Part shown: positions 22,171 through 61,602 of the stretch, piece by piece
Layout: every line of letters begins with the position of its first letter
How positions within the stretch are numbered: position 1 is the stretch's first letter
Source: Escherichia phage phiWec186
Strand: one strand, 5' to 3'
Sequence record: LC739535.1
DNA: 64,000 nucleotides
Position numbers and translations under genes: made by a program
Notes under the pieces: model-generated
Database searches by the model: none
What the model was told of the DNA's origin: nothing
The model's input: only the letters and a program-made list of their open reading frames with translations

Positions 22171-22584
22171 TTAAGCTTGGTTCGATAGATTATCTATGTA
22201 AACCAAAACAAAACGTTTTTCAATTCCTGTAGTTGTGTAACCAGGACGACCGTTAATCTTTACCGTATCGATCATGTAAAGCTGTCCATCGGGAACACCT
22301 TCGAGATACTTGTACGGCTTCAGCAGGTCAAGTCCGTTGGTTATCTTAAACGTTACGCTCGGTTCGTCTCCTGATAAACCTATAAGGCACTGCCAAGCTT
22401 CATCACGAGTGTTCCAACGTAAACGTATATCGTAATCTACACCATCCAATGTTACAGTGTAGGTTTGGTCTGGATATTCTTCTGTCTTCAAATACCAGGC
22501 AAAGTAATCAGAACGGTCTTCCAAGAAGACAGCCTTATATCCAGAGTTTGTTGTGCTTCGTGTTGCTTTAGAATAAGTTGCCAC
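22171..22584 (-). CDS. hypothetical tail protein
   Basis: ORF in the tail module. Confidence 0.45.
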   Translation of the reverse strand: MATYSKATRSTTNSGYKAVFLEDRSDYFAWYLKTEEYPDQTYTVTLDGVDYDIRLRWNTRDEAWQCLIGLSGDEPSVTFKITNGLDLLKPYKYLEGVPDGQLYMIDTVKINGRPGYTTTGIEKRFVLVYIDNLSNQA

Positions 22585-23321: not shown

Positions 23322-23396
23322 AGAGGAAGATGCAAGATCTTCCCATATTGATTATGATACCACAAATGTCGTCGTTATGTCAATGTAAAAATAATT

Positions 23397-23425
23397 CTTG
23401 ACTACCATGATCCGCCTTGCTACAC
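23397..23425 (+). promoter_or_regulatory. sigma70-like promoter (TTGACT, 17 bp spacer, TACACT)
   Basis: Near-consensus hexamers read directly, followed by AAGGAGG and ATG at 23452. Confidence 0.55.
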
Positions 23426-23451
23426 TGTATTTATTAACTAAGGAGGAAATT

Positions 23452-34794: not shown

Positions 34795-34885
34795 ATGAAC
34801 CTCTTAAAAACAAATATCCCATAAATCTTAGTCTACAGGATATTCGTCATTTTGTCAATACCTAAAATCAAAAAAGTTTAATTTT

Positions 34886-36451: not shown

Positions 36452-36554
36452 TTTCTTCCTCCGGCACTGTGCTTAAAGATCAATAGGGCAAGGGTTAAAT
36501 AAATTAACCCGCCCATAAAGTCATTGTACACTTTAAAGTAACTTTTGTCAACAA

Positions 36555-48299: not shown

Positions 48300-48626
48300 A
48301 TGCAAATTTACACAGATGGTCGTAAGTACGAAACGATTCTTGACGAAGATACTGGACGAATCACAATCTTGCGCCACGGGGAAGAGTGGCGAGATGAAAC
48401 TGGGGATAACTACATTTTATCTCTGATTCATCTTATTGAACAAATGCGCGATGATTACACTGAACTTCATTATGAAAACGAGCTAAACAAAGTAAAATTT
48501 GAAAACGCTCTTGAAGAGGAACGGGCTGAAATGGTGCACCTAAAAGAAGAAATCTCCCGTTTGGAGGAAGAGGTTGATTCTCTTCAAGAAGAGATCTACG
48601 AACTGAATAGTGAACTGAACGGTTAA
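48300..48626 (+). CDS. hypothetical coiled-coil protein
   Basis: C-terminal heptad-like EE-rich segment (LKEEISRLEEEVDSLQEEIYELNSEL). Confidence 0.5.
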   Translation: MQIYTDGRKYETILDEDTGRITILRHGEEWRDETGDNYILSLIHLIEQMRDDYTELHYENELNKVKFENALEEERAEMVHLKEEISRLEEEVDSLQEEIYELNSELNG

Positions 48627-48807
48627 GGAGGGAACATGTCAACAATCTATATTTTGTTTGCACTTTATACGCTGAGTAATGGCGGAAGTAGTGACTACAC
48701 CCAAGAGTTCGGATCGCAAGGTGCTTGTGAGATGGCTTTAGCAGAAGGTATCCGTAAGAATGTGTTTGATCGTGGGTTCTGCACACCTAAAGGTTAAGGA
48801 GAAAATT

Positions 48808-51752: not shown

Positions 51753-52631
51753 ATGTTCGTTAAATCTTTTAAATCTGCACTTCCGATGGTTGCTGGTGAT
51801 AATGCTTCTGTAGCGTCTCTGAACGAGTTCAACGAATTTCCGATTGACTTTGTACCTGCTGAAGGATCTCAAGCCCATACTATTGGTCTGGTTCGTTTTG
51901 AAGATGACGGGAAATACGTAAAAGAGTTCTCCGATCTGGAACTCCTTCAGGTTGGTCAATCTGTCAAGAAAGTTGACAAGAAGAAAGTTAAACGTCTTCT
52001 TAATGAACGCCTGGAAGAAATTCGAGTAGATATGGAAAGCCAGGGTCAAGAATTCTTTGTCGCTAAAGAAGACATGAAAGCCCTGAAAGCTGATATTGAA
52101 TTTGGTCTGCTTCCAGAAACTGAACCAGAAGATTTCTTCAATTATGTAGTTCTGGATAAAACAACCAACCTGTTCTATGTGATCAACGGCAGTAAGAAAG
52201 TAGCGGAAGCTATTACTTCCTTCTTCCGTAATGTTTTAGGGACTTTCCCTTCTGTAGGCTTTAGTGTTCACGAAGAAGCGATTATCAAAGGTTTTGGTAC
52301 ATTGCTGAAAGAACACGAAGCTGATCGCCTTACTCTTGGCAACTATATTAAACTGGAAGATAGTGAAGGTGTTGTTGTCTGGACGAAAGAATCTCTTTAC
52401 GATTCCAAAGCAATCGAACTTAAAGAAGACGGTAAAGATGTTGTCGCTATTGGCTTGGAGTACGATGGTGTGCTGGAGTTTGTAGTAGATAAAGAGTTGA
52501 AGTTGAGTAAGCTTCGTTTCCCTAAATACTTCAACGATGACGAAGGTTCTATTGAAGCATCTACTCTACTTTGCTTCAACGAGATTCGTGGTTTGATGGC
52601 AGATCTGACGAAAGCAACTATTCTTAAATAA
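51753..52631 (+). CDS. hypothetical protein (possibly recombination-associated, RdgC-like)
   Basis: 292 aa; only vague pattern resemblance to RdgC. Confidence 0.3.
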   Translation: MFVKSFKSALPMVAGDNASVASLNEFNEFPIDFVPAEGSQAHTIGLVRFEDDGKYVKEFSDLELLQVGQSVKKVDKKKVKRLLNERLEEIRVDMESQGQEFFVAKEDMKALKADIEFGLLPETEPEDFFNYVVLDKTTNLFYVINGSKKVAEAITSFFRNVLGTFPSVGFSVHEEAIIKGFGTLLKEHEADRLTLGNYIKLEDSEGVVVWTKESLYDSKAIELKEDGKDVVAIGLEYDGVLEFVVDKELKLSKLRFPKYFNDDEGSIEASTLLCFNEIRGLMADLTKATILK

Positions 52632-52635
52632 GTGC

Positions 52636-52664
52636 TTGACTTGCAGACTTCATTGTGATACTAT
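52636..52664 (+). promoter_or_regulatory. sigma70-like promoter (TTGACT, 17 bp spacer, TACTAT)
   Basis: Hexamers read directly; followed by a 5' hairpin (52666-52689) and an AGGAGG RBS. Confidence 0.55.
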
Positions 52665-52702
52665 GCCTACCTACTCAACGAGGTAGGCTTTTAGGAGGTG
52701 TT

Positions 52703-52912
52703 ATGAAAAAGACAATTGCAGCGTTACTGTTGGCAACAAGTTTCTCGGCAGCGGCTGGACAAACTACTCTCATTCTTTCGGATGAGGAAGTTAGCGGAAA
52801 TACTAAATATTGTTTCTATTCCAACTCCATCTACGACAAAGTTATCCAGATCTCTGCGAGTCGGCAATGTCCTTACACAAAAACATTCAGTACGGATGAT
52901 GACGATGAATAA
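52703..52912 (+). CDS. small secreted protein (signal peptide)
   Basis: N-terminal MKKTIAALLLATSFSAAAGQ is signal-peptide-like; AGGAGG RBS. Confidence 0.45.
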   Translation: MKKTIAALLLATSFSAAAGQTTLILSDEEVSGNTKYCFYSNSIYDKVIQISASRQCPYTKTFSTDDDDE

Positions 52913-52956
52913 TAGGGGGAATTATCAGCGGGTACATTTTAATAAAACCGGAAGAT

Positions 52957-54048
52957 TTGCACAAGTATGTTGACCTAAACACTGTTGTGGTTATTGACTA
53001 CGATCAGGTTGCTTTCCAAGCGGCTTCTGCTGTAGAGAAGCGTCGTATCTTGGCTAAACATGCAGCCTCCGGTTCCGAAAAAGAATTTGACAATAAGACA
53101 GAGTTTTGGGGTAAGAGTAAGACTGAAATTGGTGGTTGGCTTGGAGCATTGAATGCTAAACGAGAAGAGCAGGGTAAACGTCCTTTCACCAAAGAAGAGT
53201 TTGAAATTATTGATGTGCAATACGTACCAGACACTTTGTCACATGCTTTTCAAGCAGCTAAAACAAAAGTTCAAGCGATCTTAAAGCATTTAAGTTTAGA
53301 AAAATATTGCGGAGTTATCGGTGTAGGGAAAACCTTCCGACATGATTTTAAGATGCCTACCGAATATAAATCTGAACGATCTGACATTAAGCCTTTACAA
53401 CTATCCGATACCAAAGACTACTTGGTAGAGCAACACAATGGGGATGTTGTTACGGTTATCGAAGCCGATGATGAATTAGAGAAGTACGGTTTCCAAGGCT
53501 ACAAAGATTACAAACGCACAGGCAAATTCTCTTACATCCTGGCGTCAATAGATAAAGACAGCCTATCCACTCCAAGCATCCTCTTTAACTTCTACAAAGA
53601 AGACGGTGTATTCAAGAATCCCGATATCATTCTGATAGACGAGTCCATTGGAGATTTGTGGATTGTTGAGAAGGGCAAGAAAAAAGAGGTTAAGGGTTGG
53701 GGATCTTTCTGGTTGGCCTATCAGATGCTGATGGGAGATAAAACGGATAGCATCCGTCCTTACCAGGATTTTGGTATTAAGTTTGGAGATGTTTCTTGTT
53801 TCAACTTGATATCTGAATGCAAGACCCAAGCTGAACTTTTCCAGAAAGTGAAAGATACATTTTATACCTGGTTCCCTGAAGGTGTTAAATTTACATCTTG
53901 GGATGGGGAAGCAGTAGAATTAACAACCGATCAATGGATCGAGACAATATTCCAACTCGTTTACATGAAACGTTGGGATAACGATAACACAACTTTTGAG
54001 AGTATGCTTCAAGCGTACATTTCACAACAGGAGATAATTAATGAGTAA
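52957..54048 (+). CDS. 5'-3' exonuclease / flap endonuclease (FEN-like)
   Basis: N-terminal VVIDYDQVAFQA and later LMGDKTDSIRPYQDFGIKFG resemble FEN/Pol I 5'-nuclease motifs; TTG start. Confidence 0.55.
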   Translation: MHKYVDLNTVVVIDYDQVAFQAASAVEKRRILAKHAASGSEKEFDNKTEFWGKSKTEIGGWLGALNAKREEQGKRPFTKEEFEIIDVQYVPDTLSHAFQAAKTKVQAILKHLSLEKYCGVIGVGKTFRHDFKMPTEYKSERSDIKPLQLSDTKDYLVEQHNGDVVTVIEADDELEKYGFQGYKDYKRTGKFSYILASIDKDSLSTPSILFNFYKEDGVFKNPDIILIDESIGDLWIVEKGKKKEVKGWGSFWLAYQMLMGDKTDSIRPYQDFGIKFGDVSCFNLISECKTQAELFQKVKDTFYTWFPEGVKFTSWDGEAVELTTDQWIETIFQLVYMKRWDNDNTTFESMLQAYISQQEIINE

Positions 54049-55006
54049 ATTAACAACAGAGCAGAAAGTAGAAATCATTAGCCTTAAAACACAAGGTCTT
54101 TCTTCTCGCCAGATCGCTGCATTAGTTCTCGGTAGCGCGACAAAGAAAAGCACAGTGAACGATTTCTTGGTTCGTGAAAACTCTGCCAATGCTGGAACTC
54201 CTAAAGTTAAACCAGAAGGTCCAGTAGTTAAAATTATTGACGTTGAAACAGCACCAGAAATTGCGTATACTTTCCGTCGATTCAAAGCTTTTATCTCTCC
54301 TGATCAGGTGATTCGCCGTGGTTACTTGCTGTCCTACTCTTCCGCAGATCTGCGTACTGCTGAAGTTGAAGGTAAGAACTTGGCAAGCTACCCTCTGTTC
54401 GATATTGATCACACAGACGATTGGGAACTGTGTCAAGACATTTGGAAGCTTCTGGATGAAGCTGATATCGTTGTAGCTCACAACGGTGTTAAATTTGACC
54501 GTGCTTATATTAACCAGCGTTTCGCATACCACGGAATGGTTCCTCCGTCGAACTATGTTGTGGTCGATACTCTGAAAGCGGCTAAGAAACAATTCTTCTT
54601 ACCGTCTAATTCTCTGAAAGAGATGGGTGCTTACTTCGAAACAGAGAGCGAAAAACTTGATAACGAAGGGTTCCCATTGTGGAAGGCTTGTTGTGAAGGT
54701 GATCGTGATGCGTTTGAACGTATGCAAACTTACAACGATGGTGATGTAGTTTCTCTGCGAGATCTGTACATTAAGATTCTGGCATGGATTCCGCAACATC
54801 CTAACGTATCTGCTTACTACGAAGATACCAAAGTTCGTTGCTCTCGTTGTGGCAGTGCACATGTGAATGTACTGGCAGATAAGAAGTACCACACAGCAGT
54901 AAGTTCTTTTGATATTATTCGTTGTGAAGATTGTGGTGGACTTTCTCGTGGACGTGTTAACAGCCGTTCCAAAGATAAGATGAAAAACACCATTGTAGGG
55001 ATTTAA
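54041..55006 (+). CDS. DEDD-family 3'-5' exonuclease with N-terminal HTH
   Basis: IIDVETAP (Exo I D-x-E), VVAHNGVKFDRAYI (Exo II) and YNDGDV (Exo III); N-terminal helix-turn-helix-like segment; C-terminal Cys cluster. Confidence 0.55.
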   Translation: MSKLTTEQKVEIISLKTQGLSSRQIAALVLGSATKKSTVNDFLVRENSANAGTPKVKPEGPVVKIIDVETAPEIAYTFRRFKAFISPDQVIRRGYLLSYSSADLRTAEVEGKNLASYPLFDIDHTDDWELCQDIWKLLDEADIVVAHNGVKFDRAYINQRFAYHGMVPPSNYVVVDTLKAAKKQFFLPSNSLKEMGAYFETESEKLDNEGFPLWKACCEGDRDAFERMQTYNDGDVVSLRDLYIKILAWIPQHPNVSAYYEDTKVRCSRCGSAHVNVLADKKYHTAVSSFDIIRCEDCGGLSRGRVNSRSKDKMKNTIVGI

Positions 55007-55010
55007 TAAG

Positions 55011-55036
55011 AAAGGGGCTTCGGCCCCTTTTTTAAT
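55011..55036 (+). terminator. rho-independent terminator
   Basis: GGGGC-TTCG-GCCCC hairpin followed by TTTTTTAATTT. Confidence 0.65.
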
Positions 55037-55043
55037 TTAAGTG

Positions 55044-55072
55044 TTGACATAGAGAACCAAGTGCGATACAAT
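55044..55072 (+). promoter_or_regulatory. sigma70-like promoter (TTGACA, 17 bp spacer, TACAAT)
   Basis: Near-consensus hexamers; followed by a short hairpin and a GAGGAG RBS. Confidence 0.6.
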
Positions 55073-55114
55073 CTTTATCAAGAAGGCATATCGCCTTAAC
55101 AAGAGGAGACTATC

Positions 55115-55573
55115 ATGAGTAAGAATATTATTGTTTTTCGTAACGCTGCTGATTTCCGTAATTATGCCGCAGAATCTGGTCGTAACAATGCAGCCCGTGC
55201 TTTGTATCGTCAGTTCTTACGTTTAAATAATCTGGAGCGTAACGAGCTAATCCAGGATTCCTCTGGTTTGACAGTAGGGAAAGATAACCGTCAACAAGTA
55301 CTTATCGGAGGTTGCCTGTACGGTGTGTCTGTGAACGATAAAGGTGATTGTCGTCAGTACGACACTGACTATGTTGGTCTGATTAATATCTCCCCGACTA
55401 CAGGCAGAGTTCTACTGGCATTCACTAACGATTTATCTTTACACAAGAAACCAAACTTGATCCGCACAAAAGGAAACAATGCATCTTATAACGCTGCTCT
55501 TAGCAAAGATGCTTCTGTAGAGCTTGAAAACTTTAAAATCTGGGATAACACCACTCCAGAACAAAATTACTAA
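55115..55573 (+). CDS. hypothetical protein
   Basis: ORF downstream of the promoter. Confidence 0.5.
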   Translation: MSKNIIVFRNAADFRNYAAESGRNNAARALYRQFLRLNNLERNELIQDSSGLTVGKDNRQQVLIGGCLYGVSVNDKGDCRQYDTDYVGLINISPTTGRVLLAFTNDLSLHKKPNLIRTKGNNASYNAALSKDASVELENFKIWDNTTPEQNY

Positions 55574-55582
55574 GGAGGTTGA

Positions 55583-55810
55583 ATGAGCATTACATTAACA
55601 GGTAATGAAATTTTTGAATTATTTGAAATGTTGGGTATGAACTACTCAATCGAAAAAGATCCAGAATTATTGGACGTTAGCATCACCGTCTTAGAAGACA
55701 AAGAACTTCTTGATGATAATGGTAACGTTATGTACAAAGGTCGTGTAGCTTTCTATACAGATTACCCTGAAGAGGGTGGAGTTGGAATCCAGGAGGAAAA
55801 TTATGTCTAA
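55583..55810 (+). CDS. hypothetical protein
   Basis: ORF with AAGGAGG RBS. Confidence 0.5.
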   Translation: MSITLTGNEIFELFEMLGMNYSIEKDPELLDVSITVLEDKELLDDNGNVMYKGRVAFYTDYPEEGGVGIQEENYV

Positions 55811-56201
55811 TGCATTTAATGATCAAGTTGACGGACACCATTACACAGATATGGTAATGCAACCTATAGAGTTGGCTTATCTTGTAGGTGGCACACCTTG
55901 TTTCTGCAAGCTTGCTAAATACTCTACTCGTGTCAAGGGTGATCGCATGATCAACTTGGACAAAGCTATTCATTGCATCGCGCTGGAAGCTACCATGATG
56001 GAAAACCATAGTTTCATGGTACAGGAAAACTACCCAGCAGCCACAAGTAAGGCCAAAACTGATCAAGCCATGTTACTGATTGACTTCTTCACAAAAGATC
56101 CGTTAATCCGCGAAGCTTTGAAGTGTATGTATTGTTCTTACTACCAAGATGCAATGATGGCTATCCGAAAACTTAAGGAACAAATTAGTAATGGCGAATA
56201 A
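55803..56201 (+). CDS. DUF3310-like phage protein
   Basis: N-terminal QVDGHHYTDMVMQPIE resembles the G-x-HY...QPIE signature of DUF3310; ATG at 55803 after AGGAGG. Confidence 0.45.
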   Translation: MSNAFNDQVDGHHYTDMVMQPIELAYLVGGTPCFCKLAKYSTRVKGDRMINLDKAIHCIALEATMMENHSFMVQENYPAATSKAKTDQAMLLIDFFTKDPLIREALKCMYCSYYQDAMMAIRKLKEQISNGE

Positions 56202-56382
56202 CACAAAACAGTACGGAGAAGGTGAGGTTTATAAAATTTATAACCGTAAAGGGGATAAGCTTTTAGTAACTATCACCATCCCAGAAAATATGTGCAAGGC
56301 AGGTTTGGATCGCCTGTTGTTCTTTAAACACAATATTCCACCTGGTGAATACACAATCAAGAAGGTGCCAATTGTCAAGTAA
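56191..56382 (+). CDS. hypothetical small protein
   Basis: Translationally coupled ORF. Confidence 0.45.
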   Translation: MANNTKQYGEGEVYKIYNRKGDKLLVTITIPENMCKAGLDRLLFFKHNIPPGEYTIKKVPIVK

Positions 56383-56395
56383 AGAACCAAAAATA

Positions 56396-56950
56396 ATGTG
56401 GGGCGAAGGAACGCCCTGGAAGTCACAAGCAGAGTTTTACACTTATCTTCGTGGCTGTCTTCGTCAGGCTTGGATGCGTCACCCTAACAAAATCAAACTC
56501 CTGAATGCAAAACGATACAAAGCGGATCGTCTTGACAAAGATGGTAAGGTGATGTTAGATAAGAAGACTGGCTTACCGAAACAGGTTTGGCATTGTTCTT
56601 GTGAAGTGTGCGGATACACTGGAGGTATGAAAGACTTCCAAGTGGATCATATCCATGCAGCAAAAAACTTGCAATGTTTTGATGACATTCCTATGTTCGT
56701 TCTACGTCTGATTTATGTCAATGTGGAAGACTTACGTATGGTTTGTAAATCTTGTAACTCTATCTTAGCTTACGCTGACAAGCAGGGCATTTCTTTCGAA
56801 CAAGCAAAAGTTGAGAAAGAAGCTATTGCGATCTGCAAAGATAAGCAAGATAAGAAATGGTTAACGAAACGAGGTATCGAACCAGCAAGTACCGTAGCAA
56901 AACGAAGAGAACAAATAGTCAAAATCCTATTGCAGGAAATCGAAAGTTAG
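56396..56950 (+). CDS. HNH endonuclease
   Basis: CSCEVCG...FQVDHIHAAKN...CKSCN is the HNH zinc-finger nuclease pattern (CxxC...DH...CxxC); start uncertain (track ORF begins at 56345). Confidence 0.55.
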   Translation: MWGEGTPWKSQAEFYTYLRGCLRQAWMRHPNKIKLLNAKRYKADRLDKDGKVMLDKKTGLPKQVWHCSCEVCGYTGGMKDFQVDHIHAAKNLQCFDDIPMFVLRLIYVNVEDLRMVCKSCNSILAYADKQGISFEQAKVEKEAIAICKDKQDKKWLTKRGIEPASTVAKRREQIVKILLQEIES

Positions 56951-56984
56951 GTTAATATAACAATACTGGAAGAGAGGAGGGATT

Positions 56985-57602
56985 ATGAAGATAGTTTGTG
57001 ATTGGGATCTGGTGGTTGCTCCACTGGATGTTGCTTGGCTGGAATGGTTGGTTAAAGTTAGTGGAGATTGTGTAGGCTTCTCCGAAGCTGTCAAGAATGT
57101 TGACTACGATCTTACTAAATACTTCCCAGGTTTCCGTGAGAAGTTTAACATCGATCCTTACGGCTTTCTGGATAATCCCCATCTCTATGACACGATGGGA
57201 TGTATCAAACCTATGGCTGACTTCTTAGAAGGTATTGTGAAAGAGGGCGATAATGCACTTATTGCAAGTGTGACTAAAGGTGGACACCTTAGCTCAAAAC
57301 ACAAACATGTTTTAAGAACTTTGCCAACCATTGATTTTGGTAAAGGTTCTGGTAACGGTTTCTTTGCCACAAAAGAAAAATACCTGTTGCCTTGTGATAT
57401 TGCCATAGATGATAGGGCAGAAAACCTGTTGTATTTTCCAGATCATGTTGTTAAGATTTATTACAATACGATGTATAAAGATTTGTATTTGGAAGAATTA
57501 AAAAAGAAACCAAACGTAGTTGTCACGGGTTTGTACAATCAAGCAGAAACCTGTTGGCAGGTTTATTCAATGTTAAAAGAACGAGGAGAAATTAATGTCT
57601 AA
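56985..57602 (+). CDS. HAD-superfamily phosphatase, 5'(3')-deoxyribonucleotidase-like
   Basis: N-terminal IVCDWDLVVAP (HAD motif I, DxDxV) and CDIAIDDRAEN (motif IV, DD). Confidence 0.45.
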   Translation: MKIVCDWDLVVAPLDVAWLEWLVKVSGDCVGFSEAVKNVDYDLTKYFPGFREKFNIDPYGFLDNPHLYDTMGCIKPMADFLEGIVKEGDNALIASVTKGGHLSSKHKHVLRTLPTIDFGKGSGNGFFATKEKYLLPCDIAIDDRAENLLYFPDHVVKIYYNTMYKDLYLEELKKKPNVVVTGLYNQAETCWQVYSMLKERGEINV

Positions 57603-58584
57603 TATCAGTGCACAAGTCATCGCCCAATCCATCAACGAAGAAGGACAGATGATCACAACTTTCGAACTGGAATATCCACGCATCATCCATTCGGAACTGA
57701 TGACACACCGCCTATTCTCCCGAAACGCTGCTTCAAGCCGCGCTATTCCCGTCAAGACTTTGATTGAGATGGTTCGCAACGAACCTGCGGCACCTGTTCG
57801 ATTTGGTCAACACCAACCTGGGATGCAGGATCAAGGTGTAGAGTATGATGCTCTCATTGGGGTAGGTTATTCGAGTCGTGAGTGGTGGAATTTAGCTGCA
57901 CTTAGTGCGGCAAACTTTGCAGAACAAATGGCGGAAGCTGGTTACGCGAAGCAGGTTTGTAATCGCCTTCTTGAACCATTCCAAAAAATGAAGACGGTTC
58001 TGACAGCAACCGAATATGAAAACTTCTGGTGGCTACGTGATGATGCTGATGCTGATCCGACTATTGAAGCTTTAGCCAAAATTATGTTTGAAGCCTATGA
58101 AGCTTCTACTCCAGAACTACTGGCTCCAGGTCAATGGCATACGCCTTACGTAGATCATGTCTACGAGAACATTGGTTTGGAAGGTGATGATGTTTGGGTA
58201 TTCAGTGGGTATAGCACTACAGATGAAAATGGCAATACTATCATGCTGTCGCTGGAAGAAGCACTTGCAATCTCTTCTTCTTGTTGCGCACAAGTGAGCT
58301 ATCGTCGTCTGAATGCAACTAAAGATAAAGCTTTGGACATTTATGGACGTTTGCTTACCGGACGTAAAGTTCACGCTTCCCCTTTTGAACATCAGGCAAC
58401 CCCAATGAAAAAAATGGATTTGTCAGGCTTAAAACGACAGGAGCATGGTGTTAATATTCCTCCGTTCCCGATTTCTTGGGAACCAGGCGTTACTCATGTA
58501 GATCGTAATGGTCAATTCTGGTCGGGGAATATGAAGGGTTGGGTACAACATCGTCAACTTTTAGACAATCATACTAAATGGTGA
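57595..58584 (+). CDS. thyX: ThyX-like flavin-dependent thymidylate synthase
   Basis: SELMTHRLFSRNAASSRAI aligns to the ThyX RHR-x7-S signature, with Thr replacing the first Arg. Confidence 0.5.
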   Translation: MSNISAQVIAQSINEEGQMITTFELEYPRIIHSELMTHRLFSRNAASSRAIPVKTLIEMVRNEPAAPVRFGQHQPGMQDQGVEYDALIGVGYSSREWWNLAALSAANFAEQMAEAGYAKQVCNRLLEPFQKMKTVLTATEYENFWWLRDDADADPTIEALAKIMFEAYEASTPELLAPGQWHTPYVDHVYENIGLEGDDVWVFSGYSTTDENGNTIMLSLEEALAISSSCCAQVSYRRLNATKDKALDIYGRLLTGRKVHASPFEHQATPMKKMDLSGLKRQEHGVNIPPFPISWEPGVTHVDRNGQFWSGNMKGWVQHRQLLDNHTKW

Positions 58585-58601
58585 TTCGAGTAAATTCTTA
58601 T

Positions 58602-58631
58602 TGACTTTAGTGTTAGATTTAGTGTAGTATA
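58602..58631 (+). promoter_or_regulatory. sigma70-like promoter (TTGACT, 17-18 bp spacer, TAGTAT)
   Basis: Hexamers read directly; followed by a GGGGG...CCCCC 5' hairpin and an AAGGAG RBS. Confidence 0.5.
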
Positions 58632-58680
58632 GCAAAACGTTGGGGGAGGTGAGATTCCCCCTTTATAAAAGGAGAAAATT

Positions 58681-59091
58681 ATGTCATTAGTAAACACTAC
58701 CACTTGGGCTACCGTGAGCATGTCTACCGTTAAGTCTACCCCGATCTGGAAGCAAGAGTCAGAAAAATACCGTGGTCATATTCCTCACGATCGTCACGCA
58801 GATGTACTTCGTGCCGCTCTGGTGTTCCTTGGTATGAACGAAGATGGCAACTTCTCTGTTGAACGTAATGTTAACATTCGTAGTAACAACGACAACAGTT
58901 TGGTTTATATCAACACAACTCTTTATACTTTTGCTGTTAAAGAAAGCTGTCCTTTCAAACATATCTACCAAAAGAATGATATTTTTCATTACGGAGATGA
59001 AGAGTTTGGCGGTTGGGGTGTGACCCACACAAAAATGGATGATTTCGGTAATTCCTATGATCCTGCGAGAGCAGAAGATAATTCACTTTAA
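58681..59091 (+). CDS. hypothetical protein
   Basis: ORF downstream of the promoter. Confidence 0.5.
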   Translation: MSLVNTTTWATVSMSTVKSTPIWKQESEKYRGHIPHDRHADVLRAALVFLGMNEDGNFSVERNVNIRSNNDNSLVYINTTLYTFAVKESCPFKHIYQKNDIFHYGDEEFGGWGVTHTKMDDFGNSYDPARAEDNSL

Positions 59092-59101
59092 GAGAGGGAT
59101 A

Positions 59102-59347
59102 ATGACCGATAATAAATACGAAGGCTGTGAGATTGAAGTTTACTTTGATGAGACAGTAGGCTGTAATGTTACAGTTATTTTAGATACTTCCAAACGCTTA
59201 TCACCAAAACGACAGGAAGCAGATCGCAAAGCTAAAGCGAAAGGTTTCCATGATATAAATCATTTTGAAGGGTTCCTTTATGCGAACGGGCTGTTTAACG
59301 AAATGAAATTTGGATACGATGTAGACGTGCTTGGGATTCATAGTTAA
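59102..59347 (+). CDS. hypothetical small protein
   Basis: ATG at 59102 after GAGAGGG. Confidence 0.4.
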   Translation: MTDNKYEGCEIEVYFDETVGCNVTVILDTSKRLSPKRQEADRKAKAKGFHDINHFEGFLYANGLFNEMKFGYDVDVLGIHS

Positions 59348-59361
59348 TATAGGGAGGAGAA

Positions 59362-61602
59362 GTGATTCGATACGTTACTAAATCAAATGGTAAGACAGAA
59401 GAGTTCAATCCTGAAAAACTGCGTAAATGGTCTGAATTTGCAGCAGGGAAACTGAACTGGTCGGAAATTGAATTAGAAGCTGTGAAACGTTGTTACGATG
59501 GTGTGTCTACTCGTGATTTACATAAAGCTATGATCGCTGCGTGTATTGATAAGAAGACTCAAGCGTACAGTGATATGGCAGGTCGATTGCTTCTCGGTAT
59601 GATTTACAAACAGGCTCACGGGGGATACCACAGTATCCCTTCCCTGTACACTTTCTACCAAGATATGGTGAAGCGTGGACATTGGGCCAAGATGGACTAT
59701 ACCGAAGAAGAAATCAAAGAGATTGGTAAGATTGTCAAACATAACAAGAATCTAACCTACGGTTATTCTGTTCTTCGTCAGATGGCGGATAAATACTTGG
59801 TTCGTGATGCTGTGAATGATGTTGTTCACGAGTCACCGCAATTCCTGTTTATTGGTGTGGCAATGCGTGTTATGGAGATCCAGCCTAAAGATCGTCGTAT
59901 CAACGATATCAAAAAGCTGTACACATACGTAAGTGATCTTCAGATTAACTTACCATCTCCTTATCTGACAACGTTACGTACTCCGATCAAAGGTAGCGCG
60001 TCTTGTTGTTTATTCCGTGCAGACGATACAGCAGAGTCTTTGGCTATTGCAAACTATCTGGCACACGAATATACGTTGAATAATGCAGGGATTGGTGTTA
60101 ACCTCCAAACTCGTGCAACTGGACAGGGTGTTAAGAACAACCGTATCGTTCATGGTGGTCTTCTCCCTTACCTCAAGTGGATGGAAGATAGCGTAGGAGC
60201 TTCTAAACAAGCGAGTCGTGGAGGTAGTGCAACGGTTACGTTCACAATCTTGGAGCCAGATTTTGAAGATCTGATTCGACTGAAGAACCCAACCACTCCG
60301 ATCGATAAGCGTGTTGATAAGCTGGATTACTCTGTTGTTGTAAACCGCTCCTTCCTTCGCCGTGCGGCTAAAGGTGAAGAGTGGATGCTTGTGAGCTGTG
60401 ACGAAGCACCGGAACTTTACGAAGCATTGTACAAAAGTGAAGAAGAGTTCGATGCGGTCTACGATAAAGTTAGTCGCCGTCGCATCAAAAAGAAAATTGT
60501 TAAGGCTCGTGACCTGTTGACTGAAATCATTGTTCAACGTGCAGAAACTGGACGTATTTATATGTTCTTCGCTGACAACGTAAACAATCACAGTCCTTTC
60601 CTGGATACTGTGTATCAGTCAAACTTATGTCAGGAGATCTTTTTACCTACTAAAGCGTTCCATAAAATGACGGATCTCTTTACTGGTGAAAACACAGAAG
60701 ATCAAGAATTGGCTTTATGCTTCTTGTCCTCTATTGTTGCTGGGCGCGTTACGCCGGAGCAATATGAAGATGTTGCGTATTATACTGTATTGACGATTGA
60801 TAACGTTATTGAGACGATGGAATATCCGTTCAAACATAACGAGATCACAGCTAAGGCTCGCCGCTCTATCGGCGTAGGTATTACAAACCTTGCACATTAC
60901 TTGGCAAGCAACTTTGTAACCTATTCTGATCCTTATGCGAAGAAGCTGATGCATGAATTAGCAGAACGTCATTACTTCTGGTTGGCACAAGCCTCTCTGC
61001 GCTTGGCGAAAGAGAAAGGTAATGCCGAGTGGATGGATAAAACTAAGTGGCCTCAAGGTTGGCTCCCTATTGACACCTACGCTAAAGCAGTAGATACTAT
61101 TGGGGACTTTGAACTGAAGCTGGATTGGGAAGGCTTACGTGCTGGTATCATTGAACAAGGTGGTATCCGTAACAGTGTGCTTGCAGCAGTGGCCCCGAAC
61201 GAATCAAGTAGCTTGGTGAGTAATACGACCAACTCACTCTACCCTGTACGTGACACGATCATGTACAAACAGAGTCAGAAAGGTAACGTACTGTTTATCG
61301 TACCAGATTACGAAAAACTGAAAATGTTCTATCAGTCGGCGTGGGATACCCCGTCTAAAGATATTGCCGAGATGTATGGACTCTTCACTAAGTTTACGGA
61401 TCAGGGTATCTCCTGTGATGCTTGGTTAGATTATTCCAAAATGGAAGGTGGACGTTTATCAGTGAAAGCCGAGATGCAATTTATCTTAACATTTGCAAAG
61501 CTTGGTGGTAAATCTCTTTACTACCTGAACAGCCGAACCAAATCAGCGGAATCTATGGCCCAAGAAGATTCTGATGGTGGTTGTGAAGCTTGTAAAATGT
61601 AG
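59362..61602 (+). CDS. nrdA: ribonucleoside-diphosphate reductase alpha subunit (class Ia)
   Basis: N-terminal ATP-cone (VTKSNGKTEEFNPEKLRKW), SNLCQEI active-site region, C-terminal CEACKM redox cysteine pair; GTG start after GGGAGGAG. Confidence 0.85.
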   Translation: MIRYVTKSNGKTEEFNPEKLRKWSEFAAGKLNWSEIELEAVKRCYDGVSTRDLHKAMIAACIDKKTQAYSDMAGRLLLGMIYKQAHGGYHSIPSLYTFYQDMVKRGHWAKMDYTEEEIKEIGKIVKHNKNLTYGYSVLRQMADKYLVRDAVNDVVHESPQFLFIGVAMRVMEIQPKDRRINDIKKLYTYVSDLQINLPSPYLTTLRTPIKGSASCCLFRADDTAESLAIANYLAHEYTLNNAGIGVNLQTRATGQGVKNNRIVHGGLLPYLKWMEDSVGASKQASRGGSATVTFTILEPDFEDLIRLKNPTTPIDKRVDKLDYSVVVNRSFLRRAAKGEEWMLVSCDEAPELYEALYKSEEEFDAVYDKVSRRRIKKKIVKARDLLTEIIVQRAETGRIYMFFADNVNNHSPFLDTVYQSNLCQEIFLPTKAFHKMTDLFTGENTEDQELALCFLSSIVAGRVTPEQYEDVAYYTVLTIDNVIETMEYPFKHNEITAKARRSIGVGITNLAHYLASNFVTYSDPYAKKLMHELAERHYFWLAQASLRLAKEKGNAEWMDKTKWPQGWLPIDTYAKAVDTIGDFELKLDWEGLRAGIIEQGGIRNSVLAAVAPNESSSLVSNTTNSLYPVRDTIMYKQSQKGNVLFIVPDYEKLKMFYQSAWDTPSKDIAEMYGLFTKFTDQGISCDAWLDYSKMEGGRLSVKAEMQFILTFAKLGGKSLYYLNSRTKSAESMAQEDSDGGCEACKM

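Follow-up and report, generated by a model that had tools for sequence, protein, structure and literature searches.

Three host-type sigma-70 promoters on the plus strand of a 64,000-nucleotide (nt) stretch of Escherichia phage phiWec186 (LC739535.1; here called the window) are each followed by an inverted repeat and a Shine-Dalgarno sequence. We propose, with a probability of roughly 0.5, that they belong to cassettes of promoter, stem-loop and ribosome-binding site whose stem-loops would be of two functional kinds, one stabilizing the 5′ end of the messenger RNA (mRNA) and the other acting as a terminator. The phage is a member of Phapecoctavirus (Stephanstirmvirinae) with a genome of ~154 kb. 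A 4-kb piece from the region of interest matches Escherichia phages phiWec179 and phiWec181 at 100% identity, and the window equals positions 90521–154520 of the phiWec181 record (LC739534.1) base for base. Coordinates are window positions unless preceded by 'record', which refers to LC739534.1.

On sequence criteria, the three promoters are real. Site 1 (52636–52664, plus strand) has a -35 hexamer TTGACT (52636–52641), a spacer of 17 nt, the TG of an extended -10 (52656–52657) and a -10 hexamer TACTAT (52659–52664). Site 2 (55044–55072, plus strand) reads TTGACA-N17-TACAAT, and site 3 (58601–58630, plus strand) reads TTGACT-N18-TAGTAT and lies between the end of thyX (58584) and a gene for a 136-amino-acid (aa) protein of unassigned function (58681). 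Sites 1, 2 and 3 match the consensus at 9, 11 and 9 of 12 positions. A first, sequence-only reading of the window had placed promoters at 52636, 55044 and 58602 with a common TTGACT-N17 core; all three exist and are near-consensus, the third begins one base earlier, at 58601, and the core is exact at site 1 only. The pattern TTGACW-N16-18-TAnnAT occurs ten times in the window against 2.0 ± 1.5 expected, a count reached by none of 100 shuffles, and eight of the ten matches are intergenic, a short way ahead of a gene or a transfer RNA (tRNA); intergenic DNA makes up only ~4.1 kb (6%) of the window. We relied on this strict pattern together with intergenic location; a looser promoter/terminator consensus scan was judged uninformative, its promoter matches in the window showing no enrichment (43 found, 40.7 expected).

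Orthologous intergenic regions were taken from phiWec188, PsgM04F, Schickermooser, TSP7_1, BI-EHEC, VEcB, PD114, BME3, Klebsiella phage FKP3, Citrobacter phage Tr1 and three IMG/VR contigs. Searches of IMG/VR with the three downstream proteins gave only one to five loci per protein, and orthologues were therefore drawn from GenBank phage records. The hexamers are invariant or nearly so in the orthologues from Phapecoctavirus, Justusliebigvirus, Citrobacter phage Tr1 and the IMG/VR contigs. At site 1, TTGACT, the TGn of the extended -10 and TAnnAT are kept in all seven distinct orthologues; at site 3, TTGACTTT and TAnnAT-AG are invariant in nine. Because the hexamers are fixed while the spacers change freely at both sites, sites 1 and 3 are best read as working promoters. 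The site 2 promoter is kept in the four close relatives that carry the 152-aa gene downstream of it. Hexamers, spacers, conservation and intergenic position thus all agree with a sigma-70 assignment for the three sites, and a Shine-Dalgarno sequence follows each stem-loop, as first read (AGGAGG at 52693, GAGGAG at 55103 and AAGGAG at 58669).

The three stem-loops differ in strength and in position. At site 1, an 8-base-pair (bp) stem with an 8-nt loop, GCCTACCT-actcaacg-AGGTAGGC (52665–52688), abuts the -10 with no gap and is followed by TTTT (52689–52692), the whole element occupying 52665–52692 on the plus strand; its folding energy is -13.9 kcal/mol, and 0.45% of random 34-nt windows of the genome are as stable. 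The site 2 hairpin, AAGGC-atatc-GCCTT (55083–55097, plus strand), has 5 bp and a 5-nt loop, begins 10 nt past the -10 and folds at -6.1 to -6.5 kcal/mol (15% of windows as stable). The site 3 hairpin, GGGGGAG-gtgaga-TTCCCCC (58642–58661, plus strand), has 7 bp, including one G.U, and a 6-nt loop, begins 11 nt past the -10 and folds at -13.0 kcal/mol (0.7%). The earlier claim of a GC-rich hairpin within about 10 nt of each promoter is thus borne out strongly at sites 1 and 3 and weakly at site 2. Single-sequence statistics are modest, and the real support for the hairpins is comparative.

Escherichia coli RNA polymerase starts 6–10 nt past the -10, mostly at the seventh base, and favours a purine after a pyrimidine. 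The predicted starts at all sites rest on the usual 7 ± 2 nt rule. With +1 taken as the seventh base past the -10, the first paired base of the site 3 stem is +5 or +6. All nine distinct site 3 orthologues fold at the same place, with 7–9 bp and -12.4 to -14.9 kcal/mol, and they do so with at least five different stems, among them GGGGGAG/UUCCCCC, GGGAGGA/UCCUCCC, GGAGAGC/GCUCUCC and GGGGAGGU/GCCUCCUC. G-C and A-U pairs are exchanged at four stem positions, and several pairs are G.U. When site 3 and the paralogous cassettes described below were aligned with MAFFT, the 3′ arms fell out of register, as loop lengths differ, and pair counts were meaningless; these alignments were replaced by per-sequence folds anchored on the promoter and by a covariance-model realignment. 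In the latter, covariation at site 3 was 0.319 against 0.213 in shuffled alignments (1 of 500) and highest in the true register, a result that is only moderately supportive given that the alignment is fitted to the structure and the arms are runs of G and C. No consistent U tract follows the stem, and no terminator lies upstream of the promoter at 58601. Taken together, conservation and position indicate that the site 3 element is a true 5′-proximal mRNA hairpin. The sequence-only reading had offered mRNA 5′ stem-loops, serving stability or processing, for all three sites; a 5′ stem-loop suits site 3 and likewise the ~20 paralogous cassettes, fails at site 1, where transcription would start inside the 5′ arm, and goes beyond what the weak hairpin at site 2 can bear.

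At site 1, pairing is kept in 55 of 56 cells across seven orthologues, compared with 29–60% in slid registers. One pair changes from U-A to C-G via a U.G intermediate, five of the eight pairs never vary, and the stem always starts at the first base past the -10. It is followed by four or five U in five of the seven sequences and by none in FKP3; in Schickermooser, the depositors annotated the orthologue as an ARNold terminator (-13.9 kcal/mol), with UUUUU there. The stem-loop lies 33 nt past the rdgC stop codon. The predicted start of the site 1 promoter, at about 52671–52673, is within the 5′ arm, and RNA beginning at 52673 folds at -3.7 kcal/mol (z = +0.2), no better than shuffles. Read-through RNA folds at -13.9 to -17.6 kcal/mol and promoter-initiated RNA, across six orthologues and three assumed starts, at only -1.0 to -8.3 kcal/mol, the range for phiWec181 promoter-initiated RNA being -3.7 to -6.9 kcal/mol with the same number of assumed starts. 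With a start 6–10 nt past the -10, little of the 5′ arm would be left in RNA made from this promoter, and such RNA should be unable to form the hairpin. Most likely the hairpin serves to terminate the rdgC unit upstream. Transcripts of rdgC would carry the whole hairpin and end there, and those from the site 1 promoter would start inside the 5′ arm, lack the means to fold it and continue into the next gene, so that site 1 would be an overlapping terminator/promoter junction. Terminators on the antisense strand were considered and ruled out, the orthologues having no conserved minus-strand T run. The gene that follows (Shine-Dalgarno AGGAGG and ATG at 52703, together 52693–52705, plus strand) encodes a 69-aa protein of unassigned function (PHROG 4641) with an N-terminus that, judged by eye from the sequence, resembles a signal peptide.

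Site 2 stands just downstream of a canonical intrinsic terminator, AAAGGGGC-ttcg-GCCCCTTTTTT (55011–55033, plus strand), which ends the exonuclease operon and has equivalents at the same position in Schickermooser, VEcB, FKP3 and Tr1. The site 2 stem is unchanged in three close relatives in which the loop and flanks vary, and it shows no covariation, the divergence being too small to test for it. The promoter at 55044, the hairpin and the 152-aa gene (55115–55573) are confined to the phiWec179/181/188/190 group, PsgM04F and one IMG/VR contig. Schickermooser carries, after its terminator here, another promoter that has no hairpin, and in VEcB, FKP3 and Tr1 the terminator is followed directly by the next gene. 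From this distribution, the 152-aa gene and its promoter appear to be a moron-like insertion; the gene product had no match in Pfam or PHROG.

Our genome-wide survey took in every upstream intergenic region, including the genome outside the window, and counted hairpins of at most -8 kcal/mol. For 22 of 47 promoter 5′ regions, the fold is more stable than that of 95% of their dinucleotide shuffles (~2.4 expected). The 39 promoter-holding intergenic regions with a protein-coding gene downstream have the hairpin downstream of the promoter (16), overlapping it (8), upstream of it (7) or not at all (8). Fifteen of the 16 downstream hairpins start 8–12 nt past the -10, ten of them at exactly 10, and have no T run; the exception is site 1, which alone starts at offset 0 and alone has a T run. 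To speak of a hairpin at 'each promoter' is therefore an overstatement, as many promoters of the genome are without one. The sequence-only reading rightly described two promoters, at 2824 and 23397 (actually 23398), as lacking a hairpin (-1.4 and -0.1 kcal/mol), and it did not list those at two minus-strand promoters. One of these promoters, TTGACA-N17-TACAAT (36551–36523), is followed after 8 nt by a stem-loop at 36514–36486 (-15.8 kcal/mol, p = 0.01 against shuffles); the other, TTGACA-N18-TATCAT (23383–23354), is followed after 9 nt by GGGAAGAT-cttgc-ATCTTCCT (23344–23324; -8.7 kcal/mol, ~5% of the background as stable). Both are single-sequence calls.

Most of the 15 hairpins come from a single family of about 20 paralogous cassettes, which lie between small ORFans at record 39.9–51.0 kb (minus strand) and at record 74383. 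Their layout is TTGACA-N16/17-TAnnnT-gtatCACrTAG-hairpin-A-rich leader-AGAGAG-ATG. The family has 16 distinct hairpins of -10.5 to -16.4 kcal/mol, comprising 154 Watson-Crick and 9 G.U pairs; the first paired base is at +2 to +7, with +1 again the seventh base past the -10, and the tails are A-rich. The cassette was found at 669 or more places in 151 phage records, including phi92, phAPEC8, VEcB and the vequintaviruses FV3 and slur16. That the three window sites are homologues of this family was ruled out, the window containing no copy by local blastn. Their architecture is that of the family, and three members are picked up weakly by the site 3 model (E = 0.03–0.7).

The pattern of change in the stems points to RNA of the sense strand. 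Three positions in the orthologue stems of sites 1 and 3 are neither Watson-Crick nor G.U, all of them U/U and none A.C, and in the minimum-free-energy folds of the paralogous cassettes every non-Watson-Crick pair is G.U. Because G.U is tolerated and mismatches are U/U but never A.C, the stems seem to have been selected as sense-strand RNA.

Stabilization and termination are what we infer from sequence features, positions, conservation, covariation and genome-wide recurrence. The first kind of stem-loop would comprise site 3 and like sites, namely the two minus-strand promoters at 36551 and 23383, the ~20 paralogous cassettes and, weakly, the promoter at 55044. Here a stem-loop 8–12 nt past the -10 would put a hairpin 2–5 nt from the mRNA 5′ end, without a U tract and with the Shine-Dalgarno sequence left free. 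Its role would most likely be to shield the 5′ end from pyrophosphate removal by RppH and the subsequent entry of RNase E, and it would give phage messages a stable, context-independent 5′ end. The second kind would be the terminator/promoter junction of site 1. RNase III processing sites were ruled out, stems of 5–9 bp being too short.

Stem-loops at the 5′ terminus are an established means by which E. coli stabilizes mRNA (Emory 1992, Bouvet & Belasco 1992 and Arnold 1998, cited in PMC3997798). Like the ompA and papA stabilizers, the hairpins here are simple, lie a few nt from the predicted 5′ end, are followed by an unstructured A-rich leader with a free Shine-Dalgarno sequence and have stems whose sequence is free to vary while pairing is kept. 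They differ in being fused to a promoter as a repeated cassette instead of forming part of a long structured leader, and the 4–5 unpaired nt at site 3 with the default start are borderline against the ompA-type criterion of at most ~2–4 nt. Site 1 has its own model in the intrinsic terminator, with a stem-loop of -13.9 kcal/mol, U4–5 and an ARNold call on an orthologue. It departs from that model in its 8-nt loop, its only moderately G/C-rich stem and its four U in this phage, and from known junctions of intrinsic terminator and promoter in having the promoter upstream of the terminator stem, with the start inside the stem.

Several observations weigh against this two-kind reading. Dinucleotide shuffles of the short sequences gave z values of only -2.1, -1.7 and -1.4 for sites 1, 2 and 3, with 10, 12 and 16 of 200 shuffles folding equally well, and at site 2 the folding energy does not set the hairpin apart from chance, the hairpin being too weak to call. 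Slid registers at site 3 are still ~83% paired, the arms being runs of G and C. Similar hairpins also occur in intergenic regions with no recognizable promoter. At site 1, the four U miss the scan rule for terminators (at least five T in eight bases), the FKP3 orthologue lacks a U tract and the 8-nt loop is unlike the tetraloop terminators of this genome. Mapped transcription starts or 3′ ends for Stephanstirmvirinae were not found in the searchable literature. The 4–5 unpaired 5′ nt of site 3, with the start at the seventh base, are reportedly, after Emory's work of 1992, about the upper limit for protection. RNase E scans past ordinary internal stem-loops (PMC9943677), and because it does so, the site 3 hairpin would protect only if it is truly terminal.

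Among described systems, the nearest is the promoter-early stem-loop (PeSL) of T4-like phages (Arbiol et al. 2010, PMC2839356; Comeau et al. 2014, PMC4122927), from which comes an alternative that we regard as possible but on balance unlikely: that all the stem-loops are PeSL-type terminators or attenuators of upstream transcription, the repeated cassettes serving also as recombination sites for gene shuffling. PeSLs combine a strong sigma-70-like promoter, a stem-loop (often poly-G/poly-C) and a Shine-Dalgarno sequence between ORFans, one sub-class has its stem-loop just downstream of the -10, and one PeSL stem-loop cut lacZ expression as much as rrnB T1 (PMC2839356). The elements here likewise pack an AT-rich lead-in, a strong sigma-70-like promoter, a G/C-rich stem-loop, a Shine-Dalgarno sequence and a start codon into a compact intergenic cassette, with many copies between the small ORFans of a variable early region (here ~20, at record 39.9–51 kb). 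Several positional sub-classes of stem-loop are common to both, those of the phiWec181 genome likewise lying before, across or after the promoter, as are insertion/deletion differences in gene content between relatives, of which gene 55115–55573 with its promoter at 55044 is an example. For PeSLs, recombination between copies is further expected to leave insertions or deletions bounded by cassettes and to give minicircles. Site 1 fits this account well. For most copies, however, the terminator part is hard to sustain: a U tract is present only at site 1, the tails of the other 15 downstream hairpins are A-rich or mixed, so that canonical intrinsic termination is not expected there, these hairpins lie inside the promoter's own transcript, which a terminator would stop too, and a terminator has no need of a tight 8–12 nt register to the -10. 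PeSL stem-loops lie mostly upstream of, between or across the hexamers and are read as terminators, whereas those here are mostly 8–12 nt past the -10, in the transcript and without a U tract; they also have no sequence homology to PeSLs and come from another lineage, Stephanstirmvirinae with copies in Vequintavirinae, not T4-like phages. The idea that 5′-proximal hairpins are regulatory RNA signals for a protein or for RNA polymerase (nut- or put-like elements, translational operators or conditional attenuators giving very short aborted RNAs) strikes us as improbable. Their place just past early promoters, after a short conserved block, resembles that of lambda nut and HK022 put. The block between the -10 and the stem is gtatCACrTAG in the cassettes and AGCAnAAyrTT in the site 3 orthologues, UUU directly follows the stem in four of nine site 3 orthologues, and premature termination in 5′ untranslated regions is common in Pseudomonas phages (PMC10914365). 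Yet stem and loop sequences vary freely (16 distinct in the family, at least five at site 3), which argues against a sequence-specific reader, and the block can be explained by descent through cassette duplication together with constraints of start site and promoter escape. Unlike nut and put, the elements here have no boxA- or boxB-like conserved sequences and occur in dozens of copies, one per small gene and not one per operon; no N-like protein and no other candidate for a binding protein came to light. Rfam 15 gave no family match at the gathering threshold over 90.5 kb of the genome, and at E ≤ 1 window positions 52000–59500 gave only a chance-level match to a small nucleolar RNA. A further reading, in our view a long shot, makes the promoter-proximal hairpins a lineage-wide, factor-read RNA tag on the early transcripts of rV5-like and phi92-like phages. 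Spanning Stephanstirmvirinae and Vequintavirinae, with hundreds of copies in 151 genomes, such a tag might mark RNA as self against phage-induced or host RNA decay or defence, or might load a processivity or antitermination factor on RNA polymerase, and the hairpins would then do more than stabilize 5′ ends or terminate transcripts in a generic way.

Coincidence, with G/C-rich short inverted repeats simply being common in intergenic DNA, would account for the hairpin at site 2, where 15% of random windows are as stable and covariation is lacking, and it draws on the single-sequence z values of only -1.4 to -2.1 and on the many promoters that have no hairpin. For the three promoters together it is very improbable: the hairpins of sites 1 and 3 keep the same position across genera with compensatory changes and rank in the top 0.5–0.7% of genome windows for stability, and 22 of 47 promoter 5′ regions beat 95% of shuffles where ~2.4 would be expected. 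On the comparative data, chance is largely refuted at sites 1 and 3; at site 2 it is not. We give hardly any credence to a role of the inverted repeats in duplex DNA, whether as cruciforms or as operators to which a dimeric repressor of the phage would bind and shut the promoters off. They do overlap or adjoin the start-site region, a common place for repressors, and elsewhere in the genome inverted repeats extend across the -10 or -35 of a promoter, but G.U (T.G in DNA) is tolerated on the sense strand and unpaired stem positions are U/U and not A.C, as fits RNA; the stems, moreover, are too diverse for a single DNA-binding protein, and the loops of 4–8 nt vary in length.

The pairing of promoter and stem-loop is a variant of known phage cassettes and not new in kind, the mechanisms invoked are textbook ones, and the finding opens no long-standing question. 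A search of the literature on Phapecoctavirus, rV5 and phi92, which took in the rV5 genome paper but not those of PVP-SE1 and phi92, returned no mention of these hairpins. If the two-kind reading is true, a widespread group of large coliphages that figure in therapy collections would wire their dense early genes with one compact module, in which a 5′ hairpin and a ribosome site are joined to a host-type promoter, and the same block shifted by ~10 nt would become a terminator that stops incoming transcripts and lets local ones pass. The PeSL idea would then extend beyond T4-like phages, and expression design would gain naturally diversified, covariation-tested 5′ hairpins and terminator/promoter junctions. 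Annotation would improve as well, because ARNold-type tools call such hairpins terminators whatever their place relative to the start.

Several other promoters of the genome have unusual arrangements. The promoters at 23383 (minus strand) and 23398 (plus strand) stand back to back in one 157-nt intergenic region, the divergent pair with its stem-loop occupying 23324–23426, and a hairpin follows the minus-strand one only. The promoter at 2824, TTGACT-N18-TAGGAT, ends 8 nt before the annotated ATG at 2862 and leaves no space for a leader; the gene at 2862 would have a leaderless transcript or be translated only from read-through RNA, with the AGGA in the -10 as Shine-Dalgarno sequence. Inverted repeats spanning the -35, the spacer or the -10 occur at window 34795–34885 and at record 22290–22350, 46699–46776, 48573–48668 and 55857–55924, and mirror positional sub-classes described for PeSLs.

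Every gene between 43939 and the window's last position lies on the plus strand, small genes without assigned function coming before those of DNA metabolism (rdgC, exonucleases, thyX, nrdA and nrdB). Across the region of interest, the record named 'Pseudomonas phage PsgM04F' (OR584014.1) is 94–98% identical to this coliphage, and many records of 'Campylobacter', 'Acinetobacter' and 'Serratia' phages are near-identical phapecoctaviruses or justusliebigviruses; judged by this identity, the host labels of such records look unreliable. On the minus strand, an unannotated open reading frame of ~104 aa (MYTLKTIRKFSKEDEV...) at 40123–40435 lies inside a 583-nt 'gap' between the last gene of the structural side and the tRNA cluster. 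Within that cluster, two stretches of more than 300 nt (41161–41473 and 42081–42411, minus strand) have no annotated tRNA or gene; each opens with a TTGACA-type promoter-like site, and they could be degenerate tRNAs or other non-coding RNA.

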